DNA from: Chiloscyllium plagiosum
Taxonomy: Eukaryota
DNA length: 64,000 nucleotides
Assembly: GCF_004010195.1 (NCBI RefSeq)
Contig: NC_057719.1
Location: 27,525,458 to 27,589,457, forward strand
Reading direction: 5' to 3'
In this document: positions 2,800 through 40,635 of the stretch, piece after piece
Position numbering within the stretch: position 1 is the first letter of the stretch
Layout: every line of letters starts with the position of its first letter
Notes under the pieces: generated by a model
Database searches by the model: none
Told to the model about the DNA's origin: nothing
The model's input: the letters and a program-made list of their open reading frames with translations, nothing else
Program-made: the position numbers and the translations under genes

Positions 2800-4900
2800 T
2801 ATCTTCTAAATATGTTGAGGTTTTAGGGGCTTACATGGTCTTATACATGCAGGGATAGGCACCTGCTGGTTCTCTTAAAACTTTAACTCCACAGCTTCCC
2901 ACTTCATCACCCCAGCCTTGCACAGCCCTCTTCTACCCTCTTGCCAAAATCCACAAACAACATAGCTCTGGCAGACCCATTGATTCAGTCTGATCCTGCC
3001 CCATAGAACTTACTGCTTCCTATTTTGTTTCCATTTTTCTCCCATTCATTGAGCCACTTCTCATCTTCATTTGTGATCCTTCCACAATTTCTAACTGTCC
3101 AGTCCCCAGCCATCTCCCGTTCATCATGGATATGTAATCCCTCACCACCAGGATGGTATGAAGGTTTCTGAAAAGTTTTAATCCACCAACACCCTCCTCC
3201 ACCTGGTTGAACTCATTTTAACTTTGAACAACTTCTCCTTTGTCATCTCACTTTTTCCAAGTGTGGCTATGAGCACAGACCCTAGATTTTGCTGATCTCT
3301 TTGAAGGTGAAACATTCTTTGTTCCATTCATAATCAGACTCCCTCCCACAACTCTCTCTTTCACATCGATGACTACATTGGTGCTGCTTCCTGCTCTTGT
3401 CCAGAATTGGAAAAATTAATCAGTTTTGCTTCCAACTTCCATCTTTCTCTTACATTCACTTGGTCCATCTCTGACTATTTTCATCCTTTCCTTAATCCTT
3501 GTGTTTCCAAATCTGGGGATAGGCTGTCCACCAATATCTATTACAAACCTACTCCTACAGTTACTGTGGCAAAGCTTCCTCACACATTGTTTCCTGCAGT
3601 GACTCCATTCCATTCTTCCAGTTGCTCCATCCAATCTAATTTGATAATACCAATTTCCACAGCGATATTGCTGTCATATCCTCCATTTTCCTCAACCAAG
3701 ACTATGGTTGACAAGGCCCTCAGCCACATCTGGCCCATTTAGCGCACTTCTGGCCTTGCACCTTTCCCTCCCTCTTTGTCTTCGTCGAAACATAGACACA
3801 GAAACATAGAAGCTAAGAACAGGAGTAAATCATTCAACCCCTTGAGCCTCCTCTGCCATTCGAAATAGTCATGGCTGATTATGAAGCTCAATATTTTATT
3901 GACAGTATATCCCCATATCCCTTAAACACTTTAGCCTCAAAAGCTAGATCTACCTCCTTCTTGAAAACACAATGTTTGCTGCAACCACTTTCTGTGGTCG
4001 TGAATTCCACAGGTTTGCCAGTCTGCGCATGAAGATTTCCTCATCTCAAACCTAAAAGCTTTAACCCTCATCCTTAAACTATAACTCCTGGGTTCTGGAC
4101 TACCAGACCATTGAGATCATCCTTCCTGTATCTAACCTGTTTAATTCTATTAGAATTTTATAAGTTTCTATGTGACCCCCTCCCCCCATCACCATTCTTC
4201 TAAACGCCAGTGAATAAAATCCTAATCAACTCAATCTCTCCTCATATGTCAGTCCTGCCATCCTCGGAATCAATTTGGTAAACCTGCACTGCTCTTCCTC
4301 TATAGCAAGAACATCCTTCCGCAGGTAAGGAGACCAAACTGCATACAATTTTCCTGCTGTGGCCTCACCAATACCCTGTACAACTGCAGCAAGATGTCCT
4401 TCTTCCTGTGCTTGTACTCTGTCACTATAAAGGCTAAAATACAGTTTGCCTTCTTTACTGCCTGCTGCACCTACGCGCTAACTTTCAGTGACTGGTGCAA
4501 CAGGTCGCTCAGGTTTCATTCAACATTTGCCTCTTTAACTCCACCCTCCCAGACCCCAAACACATTTTTCAGGGAAAGCAATTTCGTGTACATCTTTCTT
4601 TGGAATTTACTGTATTATCCACTCATAATGCAGTCACCACTACATTGGCAAAGCAAACATAGATTGGCTTTGCAGAACACCTCCACTCTGTAGACAAGAA
4701 CATCCCAGACCCTCCAGTTGCTTTCCATTTCAATAAAATATCATGCTATGCTATGCTTTTCTGTCCTAGGCATACTGCAGTCCTCCAGTGAAACCCAATA
4801 AGCTGGAATAATCGCACACCCTTTTCCAATTCAGCATGTCACAGTCTCTGGATACAACATTGAATTCAACAACCTCAGATTGTGAACTCTGTCCTCCATT
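2800..4900 (+). mobile_element. Penelope-like element (RT plus GIY-YIG), decayed, interrupted by a CR1
   Basis: FY-L-KIHK / GRP motifs at about 2930-2980, HIDD at about 3362, LISFASNFHLSLTFTWSIS...LSTNIYYKPT (ORF 3407-3742), YIG remnant at about 4640. Confidence 0.75.
3790..4530 (-). mobile_element. CR1 LINE fragment inserted in the Penelope-like element
   Basis: (catagaaa)-type tail at 3790 and CR1 ORF2 C-terminal sequence in reverse. Confidence 0.8.
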
Positions 4901-5839: not shown

Positions 5840-8778
5840 AAGGGAGCCGTGGGTTACTGAAGAAGTTGAATCTCTTGTCAAGAGAAAGCTGAGCTTATGT
5901 TAAAATGAGATGTGAAGGCTCAATTAGGGTGCCTGAGAGTTACAAAGTTAGCCAGGAAAGACCTAAAGAATAACTTAAGAAGAGCCAGGGGGAGAAATTG
6001 TTGGCAGATAGGATCAAGGAAAACCCTAAAGCTTTCTATAAAAGAGTATTTAGAGAAAGATTAGGGCCAATCAAGGACAGTAGTGGGAAGATGAGCATAG
6101 AGTCCAAGGAGGTAAAAATAATGACTGCAGATGCTGGAAACCAGATTCTGGATTAGTGGTGCTGGAAGAGCACAGCAGTTCAGGCAGCATCCGAGGAGCA
6201 GTAAAATCAACTTTTTGGGCAAAAGCTCTTCATCAGGAATAAAGGCAGAGAGCCTGAAGCATGGAGAGATAAGCTAGAGGAGGTGGGGGTGGGGAGAAAG
6301 TAGCATAGGGTACAATAGGTGAGTGGGGGAGGGTAAAACTTTGATGGATGTGGAAGGCTCCTTTAGGGCCTTGGATGGAGGTGAGGGCGCAGGTTTTGCA
6401 GTTCCTGCGGTGGCAGGGGAAGGTGCCAAGATGCGGATTTGATCGTTATGTCGTTCATTGTCTACAGAAATAGTGCCAGAAGACTGGAGGATAGTAAATG
6501 TTGTCCTCTTGTTCAAGAAGGGGAGTAGAGACAATCCTGGTAATTATGGACCAGTAGGCCTTACTTCAGTTGTGGGTAAAGTGTTGGAAAAGGTGATAAG
6601 AGATAGGATTTTTAACCATCTAGAGAGGAATAAGTTGATTAGGGATAGTCAACTCAGTTTTTGTGAAGGGTAGGTCGCGCGTCACAAACATTATTGAATT
6701 CTTTGAGAAGGCGGCCAAACAGGTGGATGAGGATAAAGCAGTTGATATGGTGTATATACGTGTTTGATTAGGTTCCCCATGATAGACTATTGCACAAAAT
6801 ACAGAAGCATGGGATTGGGGTGATTTAGCGGTTTGGATCAGAAATAAGCTAGCTGAAAGAAGACAGAGGGTGATGGTTGATGGGAAATGTTCATTCTGGA
6901 GTTCAGTTACTAGTGGTGTACCGCAAGGATCTGTTTTGGGGCGACTACTGTTCGTCATTTTTTTAAAATGACCTGGATGATGGCAAAGAAGGATGAGTTA
7001 GTAAATTTGCAGATGACAATAAGGTCGGTGGAGTTATGGATGGGGCTGAAGAATGTTGCAGGTTACGGATGGACATTGCAGACAACACTAAAGTCGGTGG
7101 AGTAGTGGACAGTGTGGAAGAGTGTTACAGGTTGCAGGGAGACTTGGATAAACTGCAGAATTGGGCTGAGAGGTGGCAAATGGAGTTCAATACAGCTAAA
7201 TGTGAGGTGATGCATTTTGGGAAGAATAACAGGAAGGCAGAGTACTGGATCATTGGAAAGATTCTTGGGAGTGTGCATGTGCAGAGGGATCTTGGAGTCC
7301 ATGTACATAGATCCCTAAAAGTTGCCATCCAGGTGGACAGTGCTGTTAAGAAGGCATACAGTGTGTTAGGTTTCATTCGTAGAGGGATTGAGTTCCGGAG
7401 CCGCAATATCATGCTGCAACTATACAAAATGCTGGTGCTGCCACACTTGGAATATTGTGTACAGTTCTGGTCCCCATATTTCGGGGAAGGATGTGGAAGC
7501 ATTGGAAAAGGTGCAGAGGAGATTTACCAGGATGTTGCCTGGTCTGAAGGGAAGGTCTTATGAGTAAAGGCTGAGAGACTTGAACCTGTTCTCATTGGCA
7601 AGAAGAAGGCTTAGAGAGGATTTGATAGAGACATACAAGATGGTCAGAGGATTGAATCAGGTAGACAGTGAAAGTCTTTTTCCTAGGATGATAATGTCAG
7701 CTTGTACAAGGGGGCATAACTGCAAATTGAGGGGTGATAGATTTAAGACAGATGTCAGAGGCAGAGAGTGGTAAGGGCATGGAATGCACTACCTGCTAAT
7801 GTAGTCAACTCAGCCACATTAGGGAGATTTAAACAGTCCTTAGATAAGCACACGGATGATTTTGAGATAGTGTAGGGGGACGAGCTGAGAATAGTTCACA
7901 GGTCGGTGCAATTTCGACAGCCAAAGGACCTGTTCTGCGCTGTATTGTTCTATGTTCTATAAGTTGCAGAGCTGGGCTGAGCAATAGCAAATCAGGTTCA
8001 ATGTGTGAAAAAGTGTGAGGTGATTCACTTTGGAAGGAGTAAGAGGAATAAAGAGTACTGGGCTAATAGTAAGATTCTTTGCAGTGTAGATGAGCAGAAA
8101 GAACTTGGTGTCCATGTACATAGATCCCTGAAAGTCACCACCCAGGTTGATAGGTTGTTAAGGCATACAGTGTGTTAGCTTTTATTGGTAGATGGATTGA
8201 GTTTCGGAGCCACAAGGTCATGTTTCAGCTGTACAAAACTCTGGTGCGGCTGCACTTGGAGTATTGCATATTGTTCTGGTCACCGCATTATAGGAAGGAT
8301 GTGGAAGCTTTGGAAAGGGTTCAGAGGTGATTTATTGGGATGTTGCCTGGTATGGAGGGAAGGTCTTATGAGGAAATGCTGGGGGTGTTGAAGCTGTTTT
8401 TGTTGGAGAGAAGAAGATGAGCGGTGACTTAATAGAGACCTATAAGATAATCAGAGGGTTAGATAAGGTGGATAGGGAGAGGCTTTTTCCAAGTATGGTG
8501 ATGACTAGCATGAGGAGACATAGCTTTAAAATGAAAGGCAATAGATATAGGACAGATGTTAGAGGTAGTTTCTTTACTCAGAGTAGTAGGGACATGGAAC
8601 ACACTGCCTGTAACAGTAGTACACTTGCCAACTTTAAGGGCATTTAAATGATCATTGGATTAATATATGGATGAAAATGGAATAATGTAGGATAGATAGG
8701 CTTCAGATTAGTTCCACAGGTTGCTGCAACATCGAGGGCCGAACGGTCTGTACTGCGCTGTAATGTTCTATGTTCTAA
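5840..8778 (+). mobile_element. Long decayed CR1 LINE (RT region to 3' tail) hosting a Penelope fragment (6111-6437) and a second CR1 (about 7076-7960)
   Basis: VPEDWRIVNVVLLFKKGSRDNPGNY, GVPQGSVLG, FADD, QRDLGVHVHRSLKV, LEYCVQFWSP motifs; two separate (tgttcta)n tails at about 7945-7960 and 8764-8778. Confidence 0.9.
6111..6437 (-). mobile_element. Penelope-like element 3' end with degenerate hammerhead motif (6206-6237)
   Basis: Minus strand reads CCTGATGAAGAGCTTTTGCCCAAAAAGTTGA...GGATGCTGCCTGAACTGCTGTGCTCTTCCAGCACC...CCAGCATCTGCAGTC; same family as 18047-18212. Confidence 0.75.
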
Positions 8779-18046: not shown

Positions 18047-18212
18047 TGGATCAGTGGTGCTGGAAGAGCACAGCAATTCAGGCAGCATCCGAAAAGCTTT
18101 TGCCCGAAACGTAGATTTTGCCTGTCTTCGGATGCTGCCTGAATTGCTGTGCTCTTCCAGCACCACTGATCCAGAATCTGGTTTCCAGCATCTGCAGTCA
18201 TTGTTTTTACCT
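18047..18212. mobile_element. Penelope-derived fold-back element (perfect 47-bp arms 18047-18093 / 18127-18173)
   Basis: Arms are exact reverse complements. The loop contains the 3' half of a hammerhead motif (gcttttgcccGAAACGTA). Confidence 0.8.
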
Positions 18213-19021
18213 TTTTATCTCAGCAAGAGGCCCAGCAATCACTTCTCTAGCTTCCCACAGAGTTCTAGGGTACACTTGATCAGCCCTGGGGATTTATTCA
18301 CATTTACCCGTTTCAAGACATCCAGCACTTCCACCTCTGTAATATGGACATTTTGAATGATGTCACCATTTGTTTCCCTACAGTCTATATCTTCCATATC
18401 CTTTTCCACAGTAAATACTGATGCAAAATACTCATTTAGTATCTCCCCATTTTCTGCGGCTCCACACAAAGGCTGCCTTGCTGATCTGTGAGGGGCCCGA
18501 TTCTCTCCCTAGTTACCCTTTTGTCCTTAAGATAGTGAGTGGCTTGAGGGGTATTTTCAGGTTTTGGTTCTTTGCCATGGCACATAACCGCAATACTCCT
18601 GTTGTGCCAATTATAAATAATCTGGATAATTTTCTTGCTTGCTGTCCAGCTATTCTTGACCTTCCTATACATGAACCCATCTACTTCTGTGTGTGCCCTT
18701 AGCAAAATCTCTCCACAAAATACCACAAATGTCCCAATGTACATGGGCCTTTAGCACTCCATTCTCTACACTTCTGTAGCTCCTCATCTGCTCCACTTTC
18801 GGTGCTCTGTTAACCCTTACCTGGTTCTGAAGATTTAAGAATAAAAAGTTCAAAATGTTTACTGACAGGGGCAACCACAAATAACATACAATTTGTGGAA
18901 AATGCCCTCGATGATGTGTATTGATGTACTCATCCCTGCAATGAGAACTTTGTAATAATTCACAGCTAGTTTAAGGCTCCTTTTGAGAATGCCCACTTGG
19001 AATATGCTGGGGAAGAAACAT

Positions 19022-19907: not shown

Positions 19908-20126
19908 CTGTAGAATTTTAACCAAAAAGAGGAGATCTTAGTTTTACATTGAATTTAGGAATTCAGGCAGCATCTATTTTCAAGGTCACTTGCAGTAGCA
20001 TGTTGTAAAAATCTAAAAGAAATTATTTAACTTTTGAAACAGGCACAAATACAAAGCAAGATTAGGCTGCCTTTATCTGTCAGTTTTACACTGATTAATG
20101 ACAATAAATAAATGACAAACAAAAAT

Positions 20127-20305
20127 AGAAATTGATGAAAGAGCTCAGCAGGTCTGGCAGCATCTGTGGAGAGAAATCAGTTAATGTTTTAGGTCAGTGA
20201 CATTTCCTCAGAACTCAGATTTCTCTCCACAGATGCTGCTGGACCTGCTGAGCTCTTTCATCAATTTCTGGTTCCTTTCTGATTTCCAGCATCCACAGAT
20301 CTTTT
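20127..20305. mobile_element. Penelope-derived fold-back element (52-bp arms 20127-20178 / 20218-20269)
   Basis: Arms are reverse-complementary with 2 mismatches. Loop on the minus strand reads TTCTGAGGAAATGTCACTGACCTAAAACATTAAC (degenerate hammerhead). Tail tctgatttccagcatcc. Confidence 0.75.
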
Positions 20306-21114
20306 GATTTTTATTCACATTAAATAATTTGTTTTAGACAATATTTATTAGTGCTGCTTAGTTGTTGTACATGTTAAGCTGAGATGCTTCTATTGGTAGA
20401 ATGTTATGCCCATGACTGACAAACTGAATATGACCAAGAGCCAGGTTCTAGGGATTGAACTTACAATAGCTTGAATCAACAGCAGATTCAGCTTCTCATT
20501 TAGAATAATTGCAATCCAGCAAACCAGGTAGATAGAAGCAGGAGACTAAAAAAAACCTTAGCATTTATTTGTAAGCAAGATTACAAAAAGTTGCCTCACG
20601 TTAATGTAAAAAGATGCAAACGTCATCTACACATTGTCAAAACGAAGCTTGAGCAATTGTCACAGAGTTAATGGCAGTTGTGAGGGTAGGGAGGTTAACT
20701 TTCCTCTGCATCACAGGACAATAATCTGGTGCAACAATTTAAGCCAGTGTACAACAGCGGAGTGACTGCGGAGGTCACTGCTCTATCAGATAAACATCCT
20801 GATACTGGAAACATAAACCACCCCCAAACTTGAGGGAACTATTTGTGGAGAAATAAAAAAGTGAAAGAAAACTGCAGTGATTCAGAGCATAGAGAGACTC
20901 TGTCCCATCACTCGAAACAACATTTTAAGGTTTGCTGTTGTGTTTACTTCAGAATTTTTCAAGCTTAACAATATTATAATATGATATACATATAGCTCAT
21001 CCACTGACACTGTGAGAAAGTCACATAGCTTATATCATGTGTGTTTTCTAGCTGTCTTCTTCTAGAGGATTTCAGTTCTTGTAACTTTACTCTCAATAGT
21101 GAGCTCTATCTCCC

Positions 21115-21277
21115 AAACAGTGTGGAAACAGGCCCTTCGGCCCAACAAGTCCACACCGACCCTCCGAAGAGCAGTCCACCCAGACCCATTCTCCTACAAT
21201 TACAGTTGCCTGAGGCGGGAATTGAACCTGGGTCTCTGGTGCTGTGAGGCAGAAGTGCTAACCACTGTGCCCAGCAC
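21115..21277 (-). mobile_element. HE1 SINE with the central domain deleted
   Basis: Tail cagtgtggaaacaggcccttcggcccaacaagtccacaccgacc joined directly to head gcctgaggcgggaattgaacctgggtctctggtgctgtgaggcagaagtgctaaccactgtgcc. Confidence 0.85.
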
Positions 21278-22049
21278 ATTTGGAATCATTTAGCAAGTGC
21301 TACCCAATTACAGAATCACATGTGCAGCAAACAATTTGGTGCGAGTTCTACAAGTTTTGTCTGGTTGAGAATGGTCTGGATTCTGATTACTACAAACAAC
21401 CAGAGATACAAGATGTCCAATTTGGTCAGCCGATTGTTGGCGTTCATACTTTCATATTTATTTACAACAGCTCGTTCCACTCAACTCTGAGTAGGCAATT
21501 TCTTTTTAAAGCTACACTGCTAAGCTAACTCTCCACATCATTGTTTATTTTTCTTTAATTTCCTATCGGTATGGCAAAAACAATATTGCATTTTACTTAG
21601 GTTTTCAAACTGGACAAGTTCTCAGATGTTCAAAATAGTCTGTACTGTCCTTCCCTAATTCAGAGAGAATGCGCACTTATATTCCAGAAAGAAGTCACAA
21701 GAACTCCTGGATTTTGAAAAGTTCTTCAGTGGATTAGTTGATTTAATTGACTAAGATATTCAGACAGCAAAATTTACAGCAAATGATTATTTTCTCCAGT
21801 CCGATGCATGACAATGTTTTGAAAGATGCTTTGTGCAGGAATTGAAAACTGAACATGTTCCTTTGTCAGGGCTATTAAAATCTTAAATGGAGACCCATTT
21901 TTCCAAATTTGTAGAAAAGTTATTAACATCTGACTATTTTCACTTACTATGGAACAGAAATGCATATTTCAACTGGCTTAGCATTGGCAAAATCATAAGA
22001 GTTTATAATCAGTCACATGTGACACAGGGCAGCAAAAGTCCTATAAATT

Positions 22050-22200
22050 GGAAAACGGCTCAGTGGTTAGCACTGTTGCTTCACAGCACCAGGGATTCAG
22101 GTTCTATTCCAGCCTCGGGTAACTGTGTGTGAAGTTTGGATGTTCTCCCCATGTCTACATGGGTCCCCTCCAAGTGCTCTGTTTTCTTCTCACAGTCCAG
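22050..22200 (+). mobile_element. HE1 SINE 5' half, truncated at a Penelope hairpin
   Basis: ggctcagtggttagcactgttgcttcacagcaccagggattcaggttctattccagcctcgggtaactgtgtgtgaagtttgg. Confidence 0.8.
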
Positions 22201-22205
22201 AGAAA

Positions 22206-22410
22206 TACAAAGTTAAAAATCACACAACACCAGGTTATAGTCCAACAGGTTTAATTGGAAGCACACTAGCTTTCGGAGCGACGCTCCTTCATCAGGTGAT
22301 TGTCGTTCCAAAAGCTAGTGTGCTTCCAATTAAACCTGTTGGACTATAACCTGGTGTTGTGTGATTTTTAACTTTGTACACCCCAGTCCAACACTGGCAT
22401 CTCCAAATCC
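22206..22410. mobile_element. Penelope-derived fold-back element (77-bp arms 22206-22282 / 22302-22378)
   Basis: Arms are reverse-complementary with 2 CpG-type transitions, followed by tail caccccagtccaacactggcatctccaaatc. Confidence 0.8.
22264..22298 (-). ncRNA. Minimal type I hammerhead ribozyme motif with intact core
   Basis: Minus strand CAC-CUGAUGA-A-GGAGC-GUC-GCUCC-GAAA-GCUA-GUG: conserved CUGAUGA/GAAA/UH core, 5-bp helix II, palindromic AGCU helix III, CAC/GUG helix I. Confidence 0.7.
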
Positions 22411-24469
22411 CAAATAATTTATTATTTTAAGTTGGGATGAAGTACAGAATCCAGCCCTTGTGAAGCCCATCCCAATGGCCTGAGCCAAAATAAGGACACG
22501 CACCCTCTGCAAAGGAGGCAGGATCAAAAATTCAAATGGTGGGTATTGGATGACTTTCCTGCCAAGCACCACAACCAGATTATAGACTGTTCTTGGAGGC
22601 AGCCCTACAAATTCCATGGGGAAACCTCAGCTTATTGCTTGTCAATCTAAGCAGACCCCATGCCTGCTGTAGGTGAGAGTTTTGTTTTAGACCTGCGTAA
22701 GGTGTCAGCCTAGGGGTCCAAATGAAGTCAAAACAGGTGGGCAGGACTTTAGTTGCTGAAAAGAATTTCTGCCTCCACTCTGAAAAACAGCACAAAACAA
22801 TGACCTGTGAGGGTGACACATGTATGGGAAAATGGTCACCTGCAAGTTCCCCTCCAGCATTGCACTGCCATTTATCAACACTGACAGCTTCTGGTTGCAC
22901 TTAATCCAATAGGCCTACCTTACAGAGGCAACATTGAGCATCAACACACTCCATCAAAAAGCGCCTAAGGGTTTTTGGTTCAATTTCTAAATGCAACAGG
23001 TTGCACCCAAAGTCAGGTATGGTGGGTGAACCTTCACTGCATTAAGAGATTTTATGTAGTGTGGTAATTAGAGATCTTTTCTTAGTGACTGCAGAAACCA
23101 TGGAGCCCAATGTCACTGTACCTCTTGAAAGAATGAACCTTTTGTTCTGAAAATAATCTGTCCAGAAGCATCAAATTACTGACATTTTAAATTGAAGGTG
23201 TCTCTTTGTGTTGTCAAGTTAGGACAGAAGCTGCTCAATAACAATATGCAGCATCTCTTTCACTGTAGCAAATGGGAACCTTAGCTTCCTGCTCCTAAAG
23301 GCATGACACCTGAATCAGCCACCATTAAAATGTCTCATCATAGTCAGGTTAATGTCAGCTAACAATTCCAGTTTTTATGCTGGGAATATATTCAATGTTG
23401 CCCTCCAGGTCTGACCTCACTAAATGATTAATGAAAGGACCATTCATTTACATGGGACCAGCATACACAAGCTCATCTCAACTTTCAGCCACCTGCACCT
23501 ATAGTCACCCTTCCCTGCAATACAGCCAGAGATTGCCCAGGTCCTAACACAGACCAAGGACCTGTCAACTCTCTTGTACATGTAACCAATGTTTTAGAGA
23601 ACCTCTTTCTTTGAGGAGACCCAGTGAGACCCACATTCAGTTTTCTGAAGGCTTCCAGGAACCCTTAGTCAAAGGAGCTTTTACCCCAGGCACAACCTCA
23701 GATACGAGGATTTCTCCTCCTCTTACAAGATATCTAGGAAACCCATGGAAGTGGTCACGGTCTGAACTCTGCTATTTTGAGAGTAGACTGGGATACAGGC
23801 AGGCTTGTGGTGAGACCAGACTATTTTGGCTAATATGTTTAGGAAAGCTGAGAAGCAACTGATGTTGACATCACGGGAACAAAACACGAGTAGTCACTAT
23901 ACCACTGACCAGGTTTTGTGTCAATCAAACTAACTAAGGTGGAATTTTGTTCCCACATCCCCATACAAGATTTTACTTTGTTCATGGGATGTGGGTATCA
24001 CTGACTGGGCCAACATTTATTGCCTTTCCTTAATTTCCCAGACACTACTTTTGCTGTGGGTCTGGATTCGCATGTAGGTCAGACCAGGTAAGGATGGCAG
24101 ATTTCTTTCCCTAAAAGATATGGGTGAATCAGGTAAGTTTTTATGTCAATTGGCAGAGGTTACAAATGGTAGAAATTAACATCCTTTCTAATCTTCTGTA
24201 CCAAGATTAGCAAGCAATATAAACTGCATAACAGAATTTGAAAAGTAATCAGTAATAAGCAAAGATACAATGCAGCTGGCAAATGTCTGGGAAGGGAAAT
24301 AATGGTCAGTATTGGAATGTGGTCAATAAGTTGTATCATAAGTGCCCAAGGACAGGTGATAGAGGCTCTGGCAAACATCACAAGATGACGGAAGGCCTAG
24401 GATTGACCATGAAATTGTCCATCATTGATCGTGTATTCACAGGATTGGATGTGTAGGTCAGAGGGGATG

Positions 24470-25328
24470 TGACATGCGCTGATCCTGGAACATCTGCTGT
24501 TCATCGTCTATATAAATGATTTGGAGAAAACGTGGCTGGTCTAATTTATAAGTCTGTTGACAATACAGTTGATGGAGTTGTGGATAGTGAGGAGGATTGT
24601 TAGAGGATACAGGAGGATATGCAGAAAAATGGAAAGTCAAGTACAGGTGGAAATTATACAGCAAATGGTAGAATTGTTCAAGAAGGCATTTGATATCATT
24701 GCGTTTATTGGTCAGTGTATTAACTTTATGGGTTGGGAAGTCATGTTGCTGCTTTACAGGACATTGGATAGGCCATTTTTGAAATGCTGCATTAATTTCT
24801 GGTCTCCCTGCTATAGCAACAATGTTGTTAAACTTGAAAGGGTTCTGAAAAGATTTACATGGATGTTGCCAGGGTTGCAGGATTTGAGCTAGAGGGAGAG
24901 GCTGAATAGGCTGGGGCTATTTTCCCTGGAGCTTCAGAGGCTAAGGAGTGACCTTTTAGAAATTTATAAAATCATGAGGGGCATGGATATGATGAATAGT
25001 CAAGGTCTTTTCCCTCGGGTGGGGGAGTCCAGAACTAGAGGGCATCAGTTTAAGGTGAGGGGGGAAAGGTTTAAAAGGGACCTACGGGGCAATGTTTTCT
25101 CACAGAGGGTGGTGCATGTATGGAATGAACTGCCAGAGGAAGCGGTGGAAGCTGGTACAATTACAACATTCAAAAGGCATCTGGATGGTTATATGAATAG
25201 GAAGGGTTTAAGAGGGATATGGACCAAATGCTGACAAATGGGACTAGATTGATTTAGGATATCTGGTTGGCATGGATGCGTTGGTCCGAAGGGTCTGCTT
25301 CCATATTCTACAGCTTTATGATTCTAAC
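24470..25328 (+). mobile_element. CR1 LINE, 5'-truncated
   Basis: KKAFDIIAFIGQCI...LERVLKRFTWMLPG; RGHQFKVRGERFKRDLRGNVFSQRVVHVWNELPEE. Confidence 0.9.
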
Positions 25329-26289
25329 TACCCTCAGGCAAACACTTAAGTGTAAAGTGAATGCAGTGGTAAAAGCTCTACAGACATTGCAATGACAGTC
25401 ATTTCTGTGGATCATTTCTCACTTATTTCTTTATCAGTCTAGCATTGTTTGATCAAATTAACACCTACAACCTGGACCGTCATCTCATGCAAGTATTGAT
25501 TTCTTAGAGGCAGCAACAGAAACAAAATTTGAAAAAGTTGATTTATAGCTATATCATTTTCCTATTCTATAATTTTCTATCCCAAATTAAATGAGATAGA
25601 AATTTCATCAGGTGTATTTTACATTTAGAGTACTCCACTAGACATTTATTCTCCTTTACAGAAATAAATAAAACTGCTCCCTGAAGCTGCGTCTCCATTC
25701 CTGAGGGGCTTGCACAGTGACAGTAATTCTGGGGAATTTTCTATGAAAAACTATTGTAAACAATTGGGGTTTGAGCTTCATGCCATCTTGTAACCAGCAC
25801 TGAAAATCTACAATCTACAGTGACACTCAGAGTAGGACAGAATATGAATGGCTCAAGAGGCAGCTTGAAACTACAGGCTTTACTATGAGCTGTTGGGATG
25901 CTGCACCTAATTAATGTTACTGAGAATTCCCCAGATCTACAAGATTAACATTTTTAGGAAAAACTTTAAAGAGATTTCAAATATAATTTATTCCTATAAA
26001 AGGAGGGAGGGGTGTAATACCTTCAACAATAAAGTGTCTTCCACTGTAACGGAAGCAGATTAATTTGCAGTGAACATTCATTAAACCAGCAGTTACTGTC
26101 TGGGGTCTTCCTGCTGAAGTTAACTGGGGGTCCATTCAGTTATTGGATCCTCCTGGTGCTCAAATGCATGTAAATATAGTAATGTACAAGTAAGAGATAT
26201 GCCTTTGGTTTGTTTGTTGGTTAGAATCAAAGTTCAATGTAGTTCATTTTCTTCATATGCTATTATACAGAACCAAACTGTTATTATAA

Positions 26290-26335
26290 TTATGTGTGTT
26301 TATATACACACATACATATATACGTATTTATATAG
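26290..26335. repeat. Degenerate (TG/TA/CA)n low-complexity tract
   Basis: tatgtgtgtttatatacacacatacatatatacgtatttatatag. Confidence 0.6.
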
Positions 26336-26739
26336 AAAGGTTTCTTATGAATAAGGCACATTTTTGAAATAAAACAAGGTAAGCACTCTAATTTTAACAT
26401 TATCAAATATTAAAGAATAATCTGTACAATTTAGCTTTTAGAAAACATGTTACTTCTAGGTTTGGATCTGACAGTTTTAATTCAGACAATTATATCCAAA
26501 TAGAAGATATCTAGAAATTATTAAGTTGAAACTTCTTATGGACACCCTATCATGGTAAACTGAAAACTGGCTGAACATCCATAGAGTGAAAATTGCTGAG
26601 GAGGACAGATTTGGATGCAATCGGAGATTAATTGCAAGTGGCCAGTGTTAGGACTTTTGTTATTGACTTTTTTTTTAATTATCTAAATGGCAGTGGATAA
26701 TAATCTTAAAGCTTGAAACAGTACCAACATTTATGCAAA

Positions 26740-27390
26740 AGTTGGACTTTGGGATGCTTGACCACTACAAGCAGATCAAGGTGTACTTGTATTTGGCAAA
26801 CAAGGTTCAATTTAAAAAGGTGCAGCAACATGCGTATGAGAAATTCAAACATGCAAATAGTCTATAGTGAGGAGAATTAAAGTCACTGGCTGATCTATGG
26901 TAAATGCTAGATTTAAATCAAATAACGTTGTAGGGTGTATTCTGCAAGGTTATTCACTATAAGGCAAGACATGTCATCATGCCCTTGTGTGCAAGACCTT
27001 GGTGAGCCCAATTTGGTAAACCTTTCGTCAAAATTTGGCCTCTAACAACCTGGGAATATTGAGCCTTCGGAAAGAGTGCAGAAGAGGTCTACTCAACAAA
27101 TTCCAAGTTCAAAACATCTTACTCAGCCAGATAGGTTCAATGAGTTTTATCTCTATTTTAAACACACTATAGACTTATGAGTGGTTTGTTTAATGTTTAT
27201 AAAACAAAGGGACTAGATGTGTTTATACGGGCCAATTAGGTAACTGATAGAGGAAAAGGGCTCACTGTTAATCATTAGGATGTTAGACAGTTCTTCTTTG
27301 CCCAGAGATGAATGGAGTTATGAAACAGGTTTCTGAATTATGCAGTAAACATTGAGTCAATTAATTCACACACAAAAATAGAGATAGACT
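26740..27390 (+). mobile_element. Very old CR1-like LINE remnant
   Basis: Degenerate accttggtgagcccaattt, gaaagagtgcagaagagg and gacagttcttctttgcccagag motifs in CR1 ORF2 order. Confidence 0.5.
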
Positions 27391-27394
27391 TGTT

Positions 27395-29070
27395 TGTGGC
27401 TGTCGCAGAGATTACTTAAATTACTGCCAAGGACCAGCACATCCCTCCCAGATCGTCTCAATGCCATCTATGCTCGCTTTGAGCAGAACTTCGGCGGAGA
27501 GGTAACACCTATTCCGACAAGTCCTGACGAACCTATCCCAACAGTCACTGTATCAGAGGTCGGGTCAGTTTTCCTTTGTGTGAATCCAAGGAAAGCGATG
27601 GGACCAGATGGAGTACCAGGCCATGCACTCAGAGCATGCACAGGTCAACTGGCAGAGGTCTTCTCGGACATCTTCAACATGTCCCTGCAGCAGGCAAATG
27701 TTCCTGCCTGTTTCAAGAGGCCAACATCATCCCTGTGCCTAAGAAAGCTCATGCAGCATGTCTCAATGACTACTGCCCTGTGGCCCTAACTTCAGTGGTC
27801 ATGAAGTGCTTTGAAAGGCTGGTCATAGCATTAATCAACTCCAGCCTCCCCACTACTCTTGACCCAATCCAATTTGCCTATTGGACCAACAGATCCATGT
27901 CAGATGCCATATCACTTGCCCTTCACTCCTCCCTAGAACATGTTGTCACCAAGAACAGCTACATAAGAATCCTACTCATTGACTACAGTTCAGCTTTCAA
28001 CACTGTTATCCCCTTGATATTGAGTACTAAACTTAGTGATCTCGGACTAAGCCCCACTCTCTGCAACTGGATCCTCATTTTCCTGACCGACAGGCCACAA
28101 TCAGTGAAGAGTGGGGACAATATTTCATCCTCATTAACACTCAACACTGGAGCCCCCCAGGCGTGTGTACTCAGCCCCCTACTGTACTTGCTGTATACCC
28201 ATGGCTGCATTGCAAAATACCAGACTAATGCCATTTGCAATTTCACTGATAACACCACCATAGTCGGTCAAATCTCAGATGGCAACAAAACAGACTACAG
28301 ACCTGGTGGAAGACCTGGAAAAATGGTGCACTGAGAACAACCTAGCTCTCAATGCCAGCAAAACCAAGAAACTCATTATTGACTTTTGGCAGGATGATAC
28401 TCATGCCCCCCTACACACTAACAGCACAGAGGTGGAACAAGTGGAGAGTGTCAAGCTCCTGGGAGCGGTCATCCACAACAAGCTTTCTTGGACTCTTCAT
28501 GTGGACGCACTGGTTACAAAGGCCCAACAACGTCTCTTCTTCCTAGGCAGCTGAGAAAATTTGACATGATGGCGAATACCCTTGGCAACTTTTATAGGTG
28601 CGCCATCAAGAGCATCCTGTCTGGATGTATCACTACCTGGTATGGCAACTGTACCATTCAAGATCAGAGATGGTTACAGAGAGTAACTTGGCCACAATCA
28701 CAAAGGCCAATCTCCCAGCTATAGAATCCATCTACCAGGCCCACGGTCAAGGAAAGGCCGCCAGCATTCTCAAAGACCCATCCCACCCTGGTAATGCTTT
28801 TCTACAACCTCTACCATCAGGGAGAAGGTACAGAAACCTGAACACATGTACCAGCCGGTTTCATAATCGTTTCTACCCCACTGTTGTTAGAATACTGAAG
28901 GACTCACAGAGTCTTAACATTGCCCTGTACCTGTGTTTTTGTTTTGCCGCTGTTTACTTATTATTTACTTATCTATGCTATTTACCTATGTGATCTGCCT
29001 GTATTGCTCACAAGATAAAGCTTTTCACTGTGCCTCGGTATACGTGACAATAAATTAAATTCAATTCAAT
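27395..29070 (+). mobile_element. Rex1/Babar-clade LINE, 5'-truncated, few frameshifts
   Basis: LNAIYARFEQ...[42 protein letters not shown]...[22 protein letters not shown]...LDPIQFAY...[16 protein letters not shown]...[32 protein letters not shown]...LPSGRRYR; tail caataaattaaattcaattcaatt. Confidence 0.9.
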
Positions 29071-29239
29071 TTATAGTACAGAACCTACGTGGTATCCTGA
29101 ACTAAGGAGAGGAAAGTTGAGGGAAAACACAAAGGAATTTTCCATTTCTCTCCCCGAATTGACCTGGCTTGTCAGTGTACATTCCATGTATTATCATGCC
29201 TCAGACATTACAACTGTGTGGGACAGGAAGGACAGACTA

Positions 29240-29460
29240 CAGGTAGTTCTTCTATGATGCAATGCGTGCGTTCTTGTGCAAACCCGCGTTATAGAAAAAT
29301 CAAGCTTTAGAAACAGTGCTTAAGGTGTTGGCAATGCAATCGCGTTACAGCCAACACATGTTTTAAAAGTTCGCACTTTAGAAACAGTGTACCTAATTTG
29401 TCAATCGTGTTATAGCGAATTTGTGTGAATGAAAGCAGAACATTATAGCAGAACGACCTG
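29240..29460. mobile_element. Non-autonomous Tc1/mariner (Tigger/pogo-like) MITE, 221 bp
   Basis: TA|caggtagttcttctatgatg ... cattatagcagaacgacctg|TA: 20-bp imperfect TIRs beginning CAG and a TA target-site duplication. Internal direct repeat ctttagaaacagtg x2. Confidence 0.8.
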
Positions 29461-29676
29461 TAATGAGTATATTTAATCTTCAATGTTAATTGGTTCACAT
29501 ATACCCAAACTCTAAAGGTCTTGGAATGAGATTTTAGTCATGGTGAAAGTATGTGCTTGCATTCTTGAAGGGAGAATGGGGAAATGTGAAAGTAATTGTG
29601 AAAGGGACTATATGAGCAAACATTTCATTGAATATACCACAACTGTTCTGTTGTAATAAAGATTTATTTCACTAAC

Positions 29677-38205: not shown

Positions 38206-38837
38206 ACGTTTGGTACATTGTCAAAAGTCTATGTTTCCAAATCACGATGGCAAGTGGTTTGAAGGGAACTTGCAGATGTTGGTGCTTCCATGTATCAGCT
38301 GCTCTTGTCCTTCCAGGTGAAAGTGATTGTGGATTTGGAAAGAGCGGTCTGAACAGCCTTGGTGAGTTTCTGTAGTTTATCTTATGGATGGTACACATTG
38401 CTTCTACTAAGTATGAGTGGTGGACGGAGTGGATGCTTGTGGATATGGTGCCAATTAAGTGTGCTGCTTTGCCCTGAATGATGTCAAGCTTCTTCACTGC
38501 GACTGAAGCTACATTCATCCAGGCAAATGGGGAGTGTTCCATCACACTCCTAACTGTACCTCATGAATGGTAGGCAGGCATTGGAGGTTAAGAGGTGAGT
38601 TACACACTAAACTTCCTAGCCTATGATCCATGTTGTAGCCACAGTATTTATATGGCTAGTCCAGTTCAGCTCTGGTCAACTTTAACCCCCAGGAATTTGA
38701 CAGTGGAGGATTCAGTGATGGTGATGCCATTGAATGTCAAGGGCTGATGGTTAGATTCTCTCTTGTTAGAGATAGCCATTGACCGGCATTTGTGTGGCAA
38801 GAATCTTACTTACCATTTGTCAACCCAAGCCTGGATA

Positions 38838-40635
38838 CTGAACTCATCTCCACATACCTTGACACCGCCCTATTACCCCTGGTCCAGGAACTCCCCACAT
38901 ACGTCTGGAACACCACCCATGCCCTCCAGTTCCTCCATGACTTTCGTTTCCCCGGTCCCCAAGTCCCCAATGCCTCATCTTCACCATGGACATCCAGTCC
39001 GTATACACGTCTATCTGCCATGACAAGGACCCTCTGTTTCTTCCTCTCCCAACATCCCCACCAGTACCTTTCCACTGACATTCTCATTTGTTTGGCTGAA
39101 CTCGTCCTCACCATCAATAATTTTTCCTTTGAATTCTCCCACTTCCTCCAGACCAAAGGGGTAGCTGTGGGCACTCACATGGGCCTCAGCTATGCCTGTC
39201 TCATCGTCGGGTACATGGAACAGTCCCATCTTCCGCAGCTACACCAGCACCATTCCCCACCTTTTCCTCTGCTACATTGATGATGTATTGGTGCCATCTC
39301 ATGCTCTCACAAGGAGGTTGAGCAGTTTATCAATTTCACTAAGACATTTCACCCCAACCTTATTTCCACCTGGACCATCTTGGACACCTCCCTCCCCTTC
39401 CTGGATCTCTCTATATCGATTAGCTGTAACTGACTCAACATGGACATCTACTACAAACCCAACAGCTCCCACTGCTACCTGGACTACATCTCTTCCCACC
39501 CGGTCTCCTGTAAAAATGCTATTTCTTATTCCGAATTCCTCTGCCTCTGCCACATTTGCTCCCAGGACGACCAATTCCACCACAGAACATACCAGATGGC
39601 CTCCTTCTTTCTTCTCCCACGTGGTCAATGATGCCCTCCAGTACATCTCCTCCACTTCCCGCACCTCTGCCCTCAAACCTCATCCATCCAACTGCAACAA
39701 GGACATAACCCACCTGCCCTCACCTTCCATCCTACCAACCTCTGGATGCATCGTATCATCCTCCAGCATTTCCACCACCTACAAACAGACCCCACCACAG
39801 GGATATATTTCCCTCCCCACCCCTATCCACTTTTGGCGACTGTCTTGTCAGGTCCACGCCCCTCCACCAACCACACCCCACTCCCGGTACCTTCCCTTGC
39901 CACCACACAGGAATTGTAAAACCTGCGCCAAACCTCCCCCCTCACCTCTGTCCAAGGCCCAAAGGAGCCTTCTATATCTGTCAGAGATTTACCTGCATTT
40001 CCACACACATATCATTACTGTTGTGTCCGTTGTTCCCGATGTGGTTTCCTCTACATTGGGGAGACAGGATGCCTACTTGTGGAACGCTTCAGAGAACATC
40101 TCTGAGACACACGCACTGAACAACCCCACCATCCCTCAGCCAAACACTTTAAGCCCCCCTCCGACTGCCCCAAGGACATGCAGGTCCTGAGCCTCCTCCA
40201 TTGCCAAACGCTTAACAACTGACATCTTCTGCCTTGGGATGATCCAAACACACGGGATCAATGTGGATTTCACCAGTTTCCTCATTTTCCGTCCCTCCAC
40301 CTTATCCCAGAACCAACCTTCCAACTGAGCACAGCCCTCTTCATCTGACATACCTGTCAATCTTCTTTCATACCAATTTGCTCCACCCTTGTCTCTGACC
40401 TATCGCCTTCACCCCTACCTTCATCTACCTATCACATTTTCAGCTACCTTCCCCCTGGCCCCACCCCCCTCCCATTTATCTCTCAGCCCCCTTGGCCCAC
40501 TAGCCTCATTCCTAATGAAGGGCTTGTGTTTGAAACATTGATCTTCCTGCTCTTCAGATGCTGCCTGACCAGCTGTGCTTTTCCAGCACCACACTATCAA
40601 CTCTGATCTCCAACATCTGCAGTCCTCACCCTCTC
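38838..40635 (+). mobile_element. Penelope-like element (RT plus GIY-YIG plus 3' end with mutated hammerhead), 5'-truncated, with target-site duplication
   Basis: LISTYLD...LVQELPTYV; NNFSF...QTKGVAVGTHMGLSYACL; YIDD at about 39273; DIYYKP; CSRCGFLYIGETG...ERFREHL at about 40030-40100; cctAATGAagggcttgtgtttGAAAcattga at 40511-40541. TSD cctggata at 38830-38837 and 40636-40643. Confidence 0.9.

Follow-up and report, generated by a model that had tools for sequence, protein, structure and literature searches.

The question raised by this locus is whether a hammerhead ribozyme motif with an intact core, lying in a fold-back within an intron and sense to the host transcript, acts on the gene that harbours it or has only been carried there. 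Our answer, to which we give a probability of about 0.88, is that the element (22206-22409) is an insertion, young and dead on arrival, of a Penelope-like retrotransposon (PLE) of high copy number, and that its hammerhead is a passenger, blocked by the hairpin. Positions are those of the window, that is, the whole 64-kb stretch of DNA that was analysed.

The exons of the host gene encode C2 domains; the gene is putatively syt16, the name given to it in the preliminary description of this DNA. The same description placed the element in the last intron, and it does lie in the last coding one:

19908..29676, minus strand: the last coding intron of the host, a syt16-like gene with two C2 domains; 9.8 kb

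The element is 2.3 kb from the 3' splice site of this intron (29676-19908). At 21598, in the intron flank, species B carries 15 inserted bases that the window lacks.

The motif, a minimal type I hammerhead with an intact core, reads CAC CUGAUGA A GGAGC GUC GCUCC GAAA GC UA GUG from 22298 to 22264 on the minus strand, exactly the letters, core and helices I and II that had been described. Its parts are:

22298-22296/22266-22264, minus strand: helix I, 3 bp
22295-22289, minus strand: CUGAUGA core
22288, minus strand: extra unpaired A, between the core and helix II
22287-22283/22279-22275, minus strand: helix II, a perfect 5 bp with a 3-nt loop
22274-22271, minus strand: GAAA
22270-22267, minus strand: GC-UA
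22267/22266, minus strand: cut predicted from the sequence, between these two bases

Helix III consists of nothing but the palindromic AGCU, A15.1-G-C-U16.1 (22271-22268), for which closure within a monomer is impossible. The assignment to the minimal, dimer-type hammerheads stands, with the core, the extra A and the palindromic 15.2-16.2 all present. A strict descriptor finds the motif once in the 64-kb window and not at all in 8 Mb of order-2 Markov sequence, both strands being searched; no antisense (plus-strand) hammerhead was found. A check with the Rfam covariance models, proposed in the preliminary description, was run and gave no hammerhead: none was among the eight matches in the window at E<=5, and the single match to the isolated motif at E<=10 was to something else. 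The lack of such a match is one of the three signs by which the preliminary description would have its idea refuted. Rfam returned nothing but generic hairpin matches; the one to MIR860 was rejected, its 45.2 bits falling below the gathering score of 89.

Six hammerhead-bearing PLE remnants were found in the window and only the motif at 22298-22264 has an intact core, as the preliminary description had claimed. The other five belong to other PLE families, and no second copy of the family of the 22206-22409 element was found in the window. PLE-like sequence elsewhere in the window comprises:

18047-18215: PLE fold-back of another family, decayed/truncated hammerhead in the loop; borders an N gap
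20127-20320: PLE fold-back of another family, decayed/truncated hammerhead in the loop
41799-41980: PLE fold-back of another family, decayed/truncated hammerhead in the loop
38783-40640, plus strand: decayed long PLE-like copy, its pLTR with a G5A hammerhead near 40512
6110-6304, minus strand: remnant of a pLTR, its hammerhead (near 6236) carrying G12A
3311-3742, plus strand: PLE-RT-like frame, judged by eye

In all three fold-backs (18047, 20127 and 41799) the second arm is followed on its right by a tail-like stretch. Pfam does not recognise the window's PLE-like ORFs, and no RT or GIY-YIG endonuclease ORF of the element's own family was found at the locus.

The element itself is a pair of 5'-truncated pLTR copies of one sequence, placed head to head, 204 bp in all and without an ORF:

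22206..22303, minus strand: pLTR copy A, 5'-truncated at 22303, tailless, with the whole motif, sense to the host pre-mRNA
22302..22378, plus strand: pLTR copy B, inverted, 5'-truncated inside loop II, with changes at 22306 and 22310 (G12A)
22379..22409, plus strand: PLE tail, 31 bp, on this arm only, with one CpG change at 22395
22057..22203, plus strand: older SINE-like repeat, cut at the left end of the element, its 3' part absent on the right

The two copies overlap by 2 nt (GT). They form the 77-bp inverted repeat 22206-22282/22302-22378 of the preliminary description, which was recovered at those positions with 75 of 77 sites complementary and two different; its statement that the right-arm copy has lost the core also holds, in that this copy carries G12A at 22310 and has no CUGANGA. 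The limits of copy A are set by other family copies, whose upstream continuation departs from it in sequence behind 22298-22303 and whose ends fall at 22206-22212. Among the loose ends listed, RNA reads of run X21 likewise show a different continuation upstream of 22298-22303. The 31-bp tail matches the family loose-end consensus before 22206/22207 in contig runs X5, X9 and X13, and the family ends listed either pass into that 31-base tail or pass, at 22209-22212, into AT-rich sequence without a consensus. No target-site duplication was seen at the element; the flanks differ, and the 3' part of the SINE is missing. The SINE-like repeat has at least six other matches in the window and has drifted further from the majority sequence of its family than the PLE arm has from its own.

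An inverted 5'-truncated pLTR pair with a 31-bp tail is the published PLE pattern, which upholds the PLE origin proposed earlier. Steps taken from the literature would account for it. The element's enzyme would have nicked an AT-rich site beside the SINE; only the RNA's 3' end would have been copied, and this in two rounds, one beginning at the tail start site and the other at an inner start site; and the two short copies would have been joined head to head at the 2-nt overlap. The hammerhead would then be a passenger of the pLTR, found in the loop because the truncation happened to fall at that place.

One might suppose instead that the fold-back is an artefact, two repeat copies having been joined in a short-read assembly. 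Of the contigs listed, none reaches across the whole stretch; those on the flank break off within the SINE, in species B at 22087; and there is the N gap beside another fold-back of the window. Such an artefact is nevertheless extremely unlikely. The arms differ at two of 77 sites in the manner of CpG decay, one run contains 0.93 of the words of 21400-23400 (though this is possibly the source sample), and fold-backs of this kind are typical of the element's family.

How large that family is can be judged from sequencing runs. The stretch is present in eight runs of species A and six of species B, and small shares of it occur in four RNA-like runs (organisms C and D) and one of species A. Four of the 24 listed runs, three contig runs and one RNA run (X21), were mapped onto 21500-22325. 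The three contig runs contributed 57,632, 76,154 and 63,391 mapped contigs, SINE and PLE parts taken together, and their summed depth reaches the millions on the arm and 7-30 on the unique flank. Such depth does not measure copy number; even allowing for up to 31-fold overcounting, these figures suggest that the family has thousands of copies or more. Opposite-strand joints predominate among those listed (14 of 15, between 22242-22265 and 22294-22304), which implies that both species have many fold-backs around the hammerhead. At the level of the family, opposite-strand joints also pile up at 22263-22265, near the predicted cut. The cleavage site may be where inverted copies start; but a common 2-nt deletion at 22262 would also break alignments there, and the pile was left out of the argument for this reason.

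Against this background the meaning that the preliminary description had suggested for an intact core is not supported. G12, which belongs to the single core CpG seen among the variants listed, is kept in about 88-92% of the family's mapped depth in the three contig runs, a summed contig depth and not a count of copies. On the same scale G12A makes up 8.8, 12.0 and 11.1% of depth in these runs and 7.8% of RNA reads, while C11.1U, at the other base of the CpG, makes up 10.6, 14.0 and 13.1% of depth and 19.7% of RNA reads. G12 is lost about as fast as its CpG partner, and an intact core is the family norm. The earlier proposal that genome-wide loss of core nucleotides at the neutral rate would mark an inert relic can be followed at the one core CpG visible, where the near equality of G12A and C11.1U speaks for neutral decay.

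This particular copy differs from the family majority at three of 204 sites (about 1.5%), two of them at CpG, and all three changes lie outside copy A. The chance that three changes would spare the motif is 0.57, or 0.17 with CpG weighting. The flanks of species A and B differ by 15 substitutions in 607 bases, and the divergence of the copy is about that of one lineage in the A-B comparison. Youth alone suffices, the time since insertion having been too short for the core to decay; selection is not needed, though it would also predict changes outside copy A.

Could the ribozyme nonetheless cleave? Transcription of the host strand reaches the right arm before it reaches the ribozyme. In predicted folding, helix II has a probability of 0.41 when it is just complete and of 0.02 three bases on, during synthesis of the GAAA. 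The competition between hairpin and ribozyme that the preliminary description anticipated is thus real in the model, and it is one-sided: in the full RNA the hairpin is predicted to be more stable than the hammerhead fold by 28.8 kcal/mol, whether or not flanks are included. Isolated from the arm, the active dimer is predicted at -17.7 kcal/mol, as against -21.0 for two monomers and -33.1 for a duplex through helix II. Nearest-neighbour energies of this kind ignore help from proteins and Mg-dependent tertiary structure. In the host pre-mRNA the antisense arm would emerge first and pair with the 3' half of the ribozyme as it is made, with the predicted consequence that no cleavage follows. The earlier notion of the hairpin as a switch fits poorly with a competing arm that is made first and with a helix II that is predicted to be gone before the GAAA is finished; the hairpin appears to be a lock and not a switch, and most likely keeps the hammerhead permanently off.

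The preliminary description had entertained a live intronic ribozyme regulating the pre-mRNA, silenced by the hairpin or activated in trans by a partner, and this we regard as highly improbable. The core is complete, family RNA is abundant and so partners in trans exist, PLE hammerheads cleave weakly as dimers (PMC4209133) or with the help of protein (PMC11167929), and domesticated intronic hammerheads are found in amniotes (PMC6155905). What weighs more is the predicted block of 28.8 kcal/mol by the upstream arm, in force from synthesis onward, together with a helix I of only 3 bp and an active dimer that the model disfavours. Minimal hammerheads are described as having no activity as monomers and weak activity as dimers (PMC4209133); the Anolis PLE hammerhead needs its protein for cleavage, and no cleavage-site reads were reported for it in RNA-seq (PMC11167929); and eight of nine Xenopus dimer elements showed no cleavage in a 2026 preprint (bioRxiv 10.64898/2026.07.22.740005). 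Run X21 has no site at which many molecules begin or end, although its poly(A) library is ill suited to reveal one and would not retain a cleaved product of 30 nt.

The fold-back might also be imagined to supply the missing helix III, making a monomeric type III hammerhead that would cut the upstream arm after 22312. The topology is possible on paper, with A15.1 (22271) paired to U 22313 and one helix I pair made by the change at 22310. Its probability is negligible, since it needs a U.C mismatch at 1.1-2.1 and leaves the GAAA zipped up by the U run of the arm. It was rejected at a predicted 15.1 kcal/mol above the hairpin, for a modelled Boltzmann fraction of about 7e-12.

The same pLTR has a second feature on the 3' side of the predicted cut:

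22250..22255, minus strand: AUUAAA polyadenylation signal (AAUAAA in the common 22254 A>T variant), 11 nt from the predicted cut on its 3' side
22235..22238, minus strand: poly(A) addition sites of family transcripts, from X21 reads, followed by a GU/U-rich stretch

X21 is a poly(A) single-cell run, of which 2 in 100 were sampled. Among its 2,799 mapped reads, 994 have poly-T loose ends at these sites, 545 before 22235 and 449 before 22238; these reads may be copies of few molecules or loci. The ends lie 12-15 nt after AUUAAA at a place with no genomic A-run. A polyadenylation signal that works thus lies in the pLTR of the family, 11 nt beyond the predicted cut on the 3' side. None of the 2,799 reads falls on the unique flank or in the junction bin 22312-22325, so they stem from other copies of the family. 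We found no description of a hammerhead with an adjacent polyadenylation signal in PLEs in the open papers searched.

With such a signal sense to the gene, the element might act as an intronic polyadenylation site, yielding a transcript without the last C2-domain exon whenever the hairpin is opened or edited. Family transcripts do end at 22235/22238, and the AUUAAA and GU-rich stretch are intact in the copy. At the element, however, signal and site are both buried in the 77-bp duplex, no X21 read comes from the locus (in 2 of 100 parts of that run), and the host intron has 18 AATAAA/ATTAAA hexamers on this strand in any case, all of which makes such a role quite improbable. A bolder proposal, and a long shot, would join the two features. 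The pLTR would be a coupled 3'-end module in which the hammerhead cut strips off the poly(A) tail, and at this locus it would provide a hairpin-gated alternative end of the syt16-like transcript, opened by editing, by helicases or by an element protein and costing most of the second C2 domain. Polyadenylation of the family, as observed in one run, is the factual part; the effect on the host gene is proposal. If the coupled module were real, a very abundant repeat would give host introns conditional transcript ends, and what PLE hammerheads do would have a testable answer, namely removal of the poly(A) tail.

For the preferred reading, that of a passenger hammerhead in a dead insertion, the consequence is a caution. 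The element is one of probably thousands of similar remnants, and motif scans should expect an intact hammerhead in a hairpin as what PLE insertion yields by default in this genome.

The motif also turns up outside this genome. Its pattern has two matches in metagenome contigs, L001 and L002, and none in viral contigs. Both (L001:966-1001 and L002:1330-1365) are identical to the element's motif at 34 of 36 positions, the remaining sequence being unrelated, and in both AATAAA follows shortly after the motif. In L001 the motif lies near an RT fragment, to which the RT-like frame 38783-39280 (plus strand) of the window is 34% identical, and helix I has 5 bp as against 3 bp at the element. In L002, which carries a marine label, a GIY-YIG-like ORF lies upstream of the motif at a distance of about 750 bp; the call has an Atlas score of 0.97, family on 23-34% of members, with no Pfam match, and PDB matches were uninformative. 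A CxxxCxxC linker, described as a trait of the Neptune/Nematis type, is also present in this ORF.

The closest relatives in the literature are the minimal hammerheads of PLEs described by Cervera and De la Pena in 2014 (PMC4209133). The element shares with them the type I CUGANGA/GAAA/UH core, the unpaired nucleotide between 9 and 10.1 (A 22288), the G10.1-C11.1 pair (G22287-C22275) and the palindromic 15.2-16.2 (AGCU, 22271-22268) without a monomeric helix III. Helix I, 3 bp here, has 4-5 bp in Schistosoma and 2 bp in D. virilis and is thus within the published spread; helix II has 5 bp here and 7-8 bp in Schistosoma. These hammerheads are mostly single copies in truncated PLEs, with thousands per genome in coelacanth and Xenopus. 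No shark example was found in the portions of that paper and its supplement that were searched, and nothing relevant on a shark PLE hammerhead was found in the open papers searched.

The architecture of the insertion is that of endonuclease-positive PLEs (PMC8557442, PMC3846280): a head-to-head inverted 5'-truncated pLTR copy, a tail at one end (30-40 bp published, 31 bp here, some family ends being tailless), a microhomology junction, an AT-rich target and many interspersed copies. Target duplication is optional there, insertions without one having been described, and the tail has been explained by two internal reverse-transcription start sites (PMC11167929). Unlike full endonuclease-positive PLEs, the element is reduced to 204 bp without an ORF.

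Two other classes resemble it less. Like the domesticated amniote intronic hammerheads of RECK and other genes (PMC6155905), it is type I, sense and intronic, but those are conserved in amniotes and have tertiary contacts, whereas the element is a young high-copy repeat of minimal type, buried in a duplex; the canonical helices foldable in a monomer, a RECK-type feature, are absent from it in predicted folding. Like the non-LTR retrozymes, of which one chondrichthyan example is reported (bioRxiv 10.64898/2026.07.22.740005), it is pLTR-derived with a type I hammerhead, but retrozymes are tandem arrays and the element is one inverted pair with no direct repeat of the unit. Compared by way of PMC6155905, PMC6765202 and PMC8969392, it was rejected both as a retrozyme array and as a monomeric domesticated hammerhead. 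To judge by its sequence features, it is a PLE minimal hammerhead in an inverted-pLTR-plus-tail insertion.
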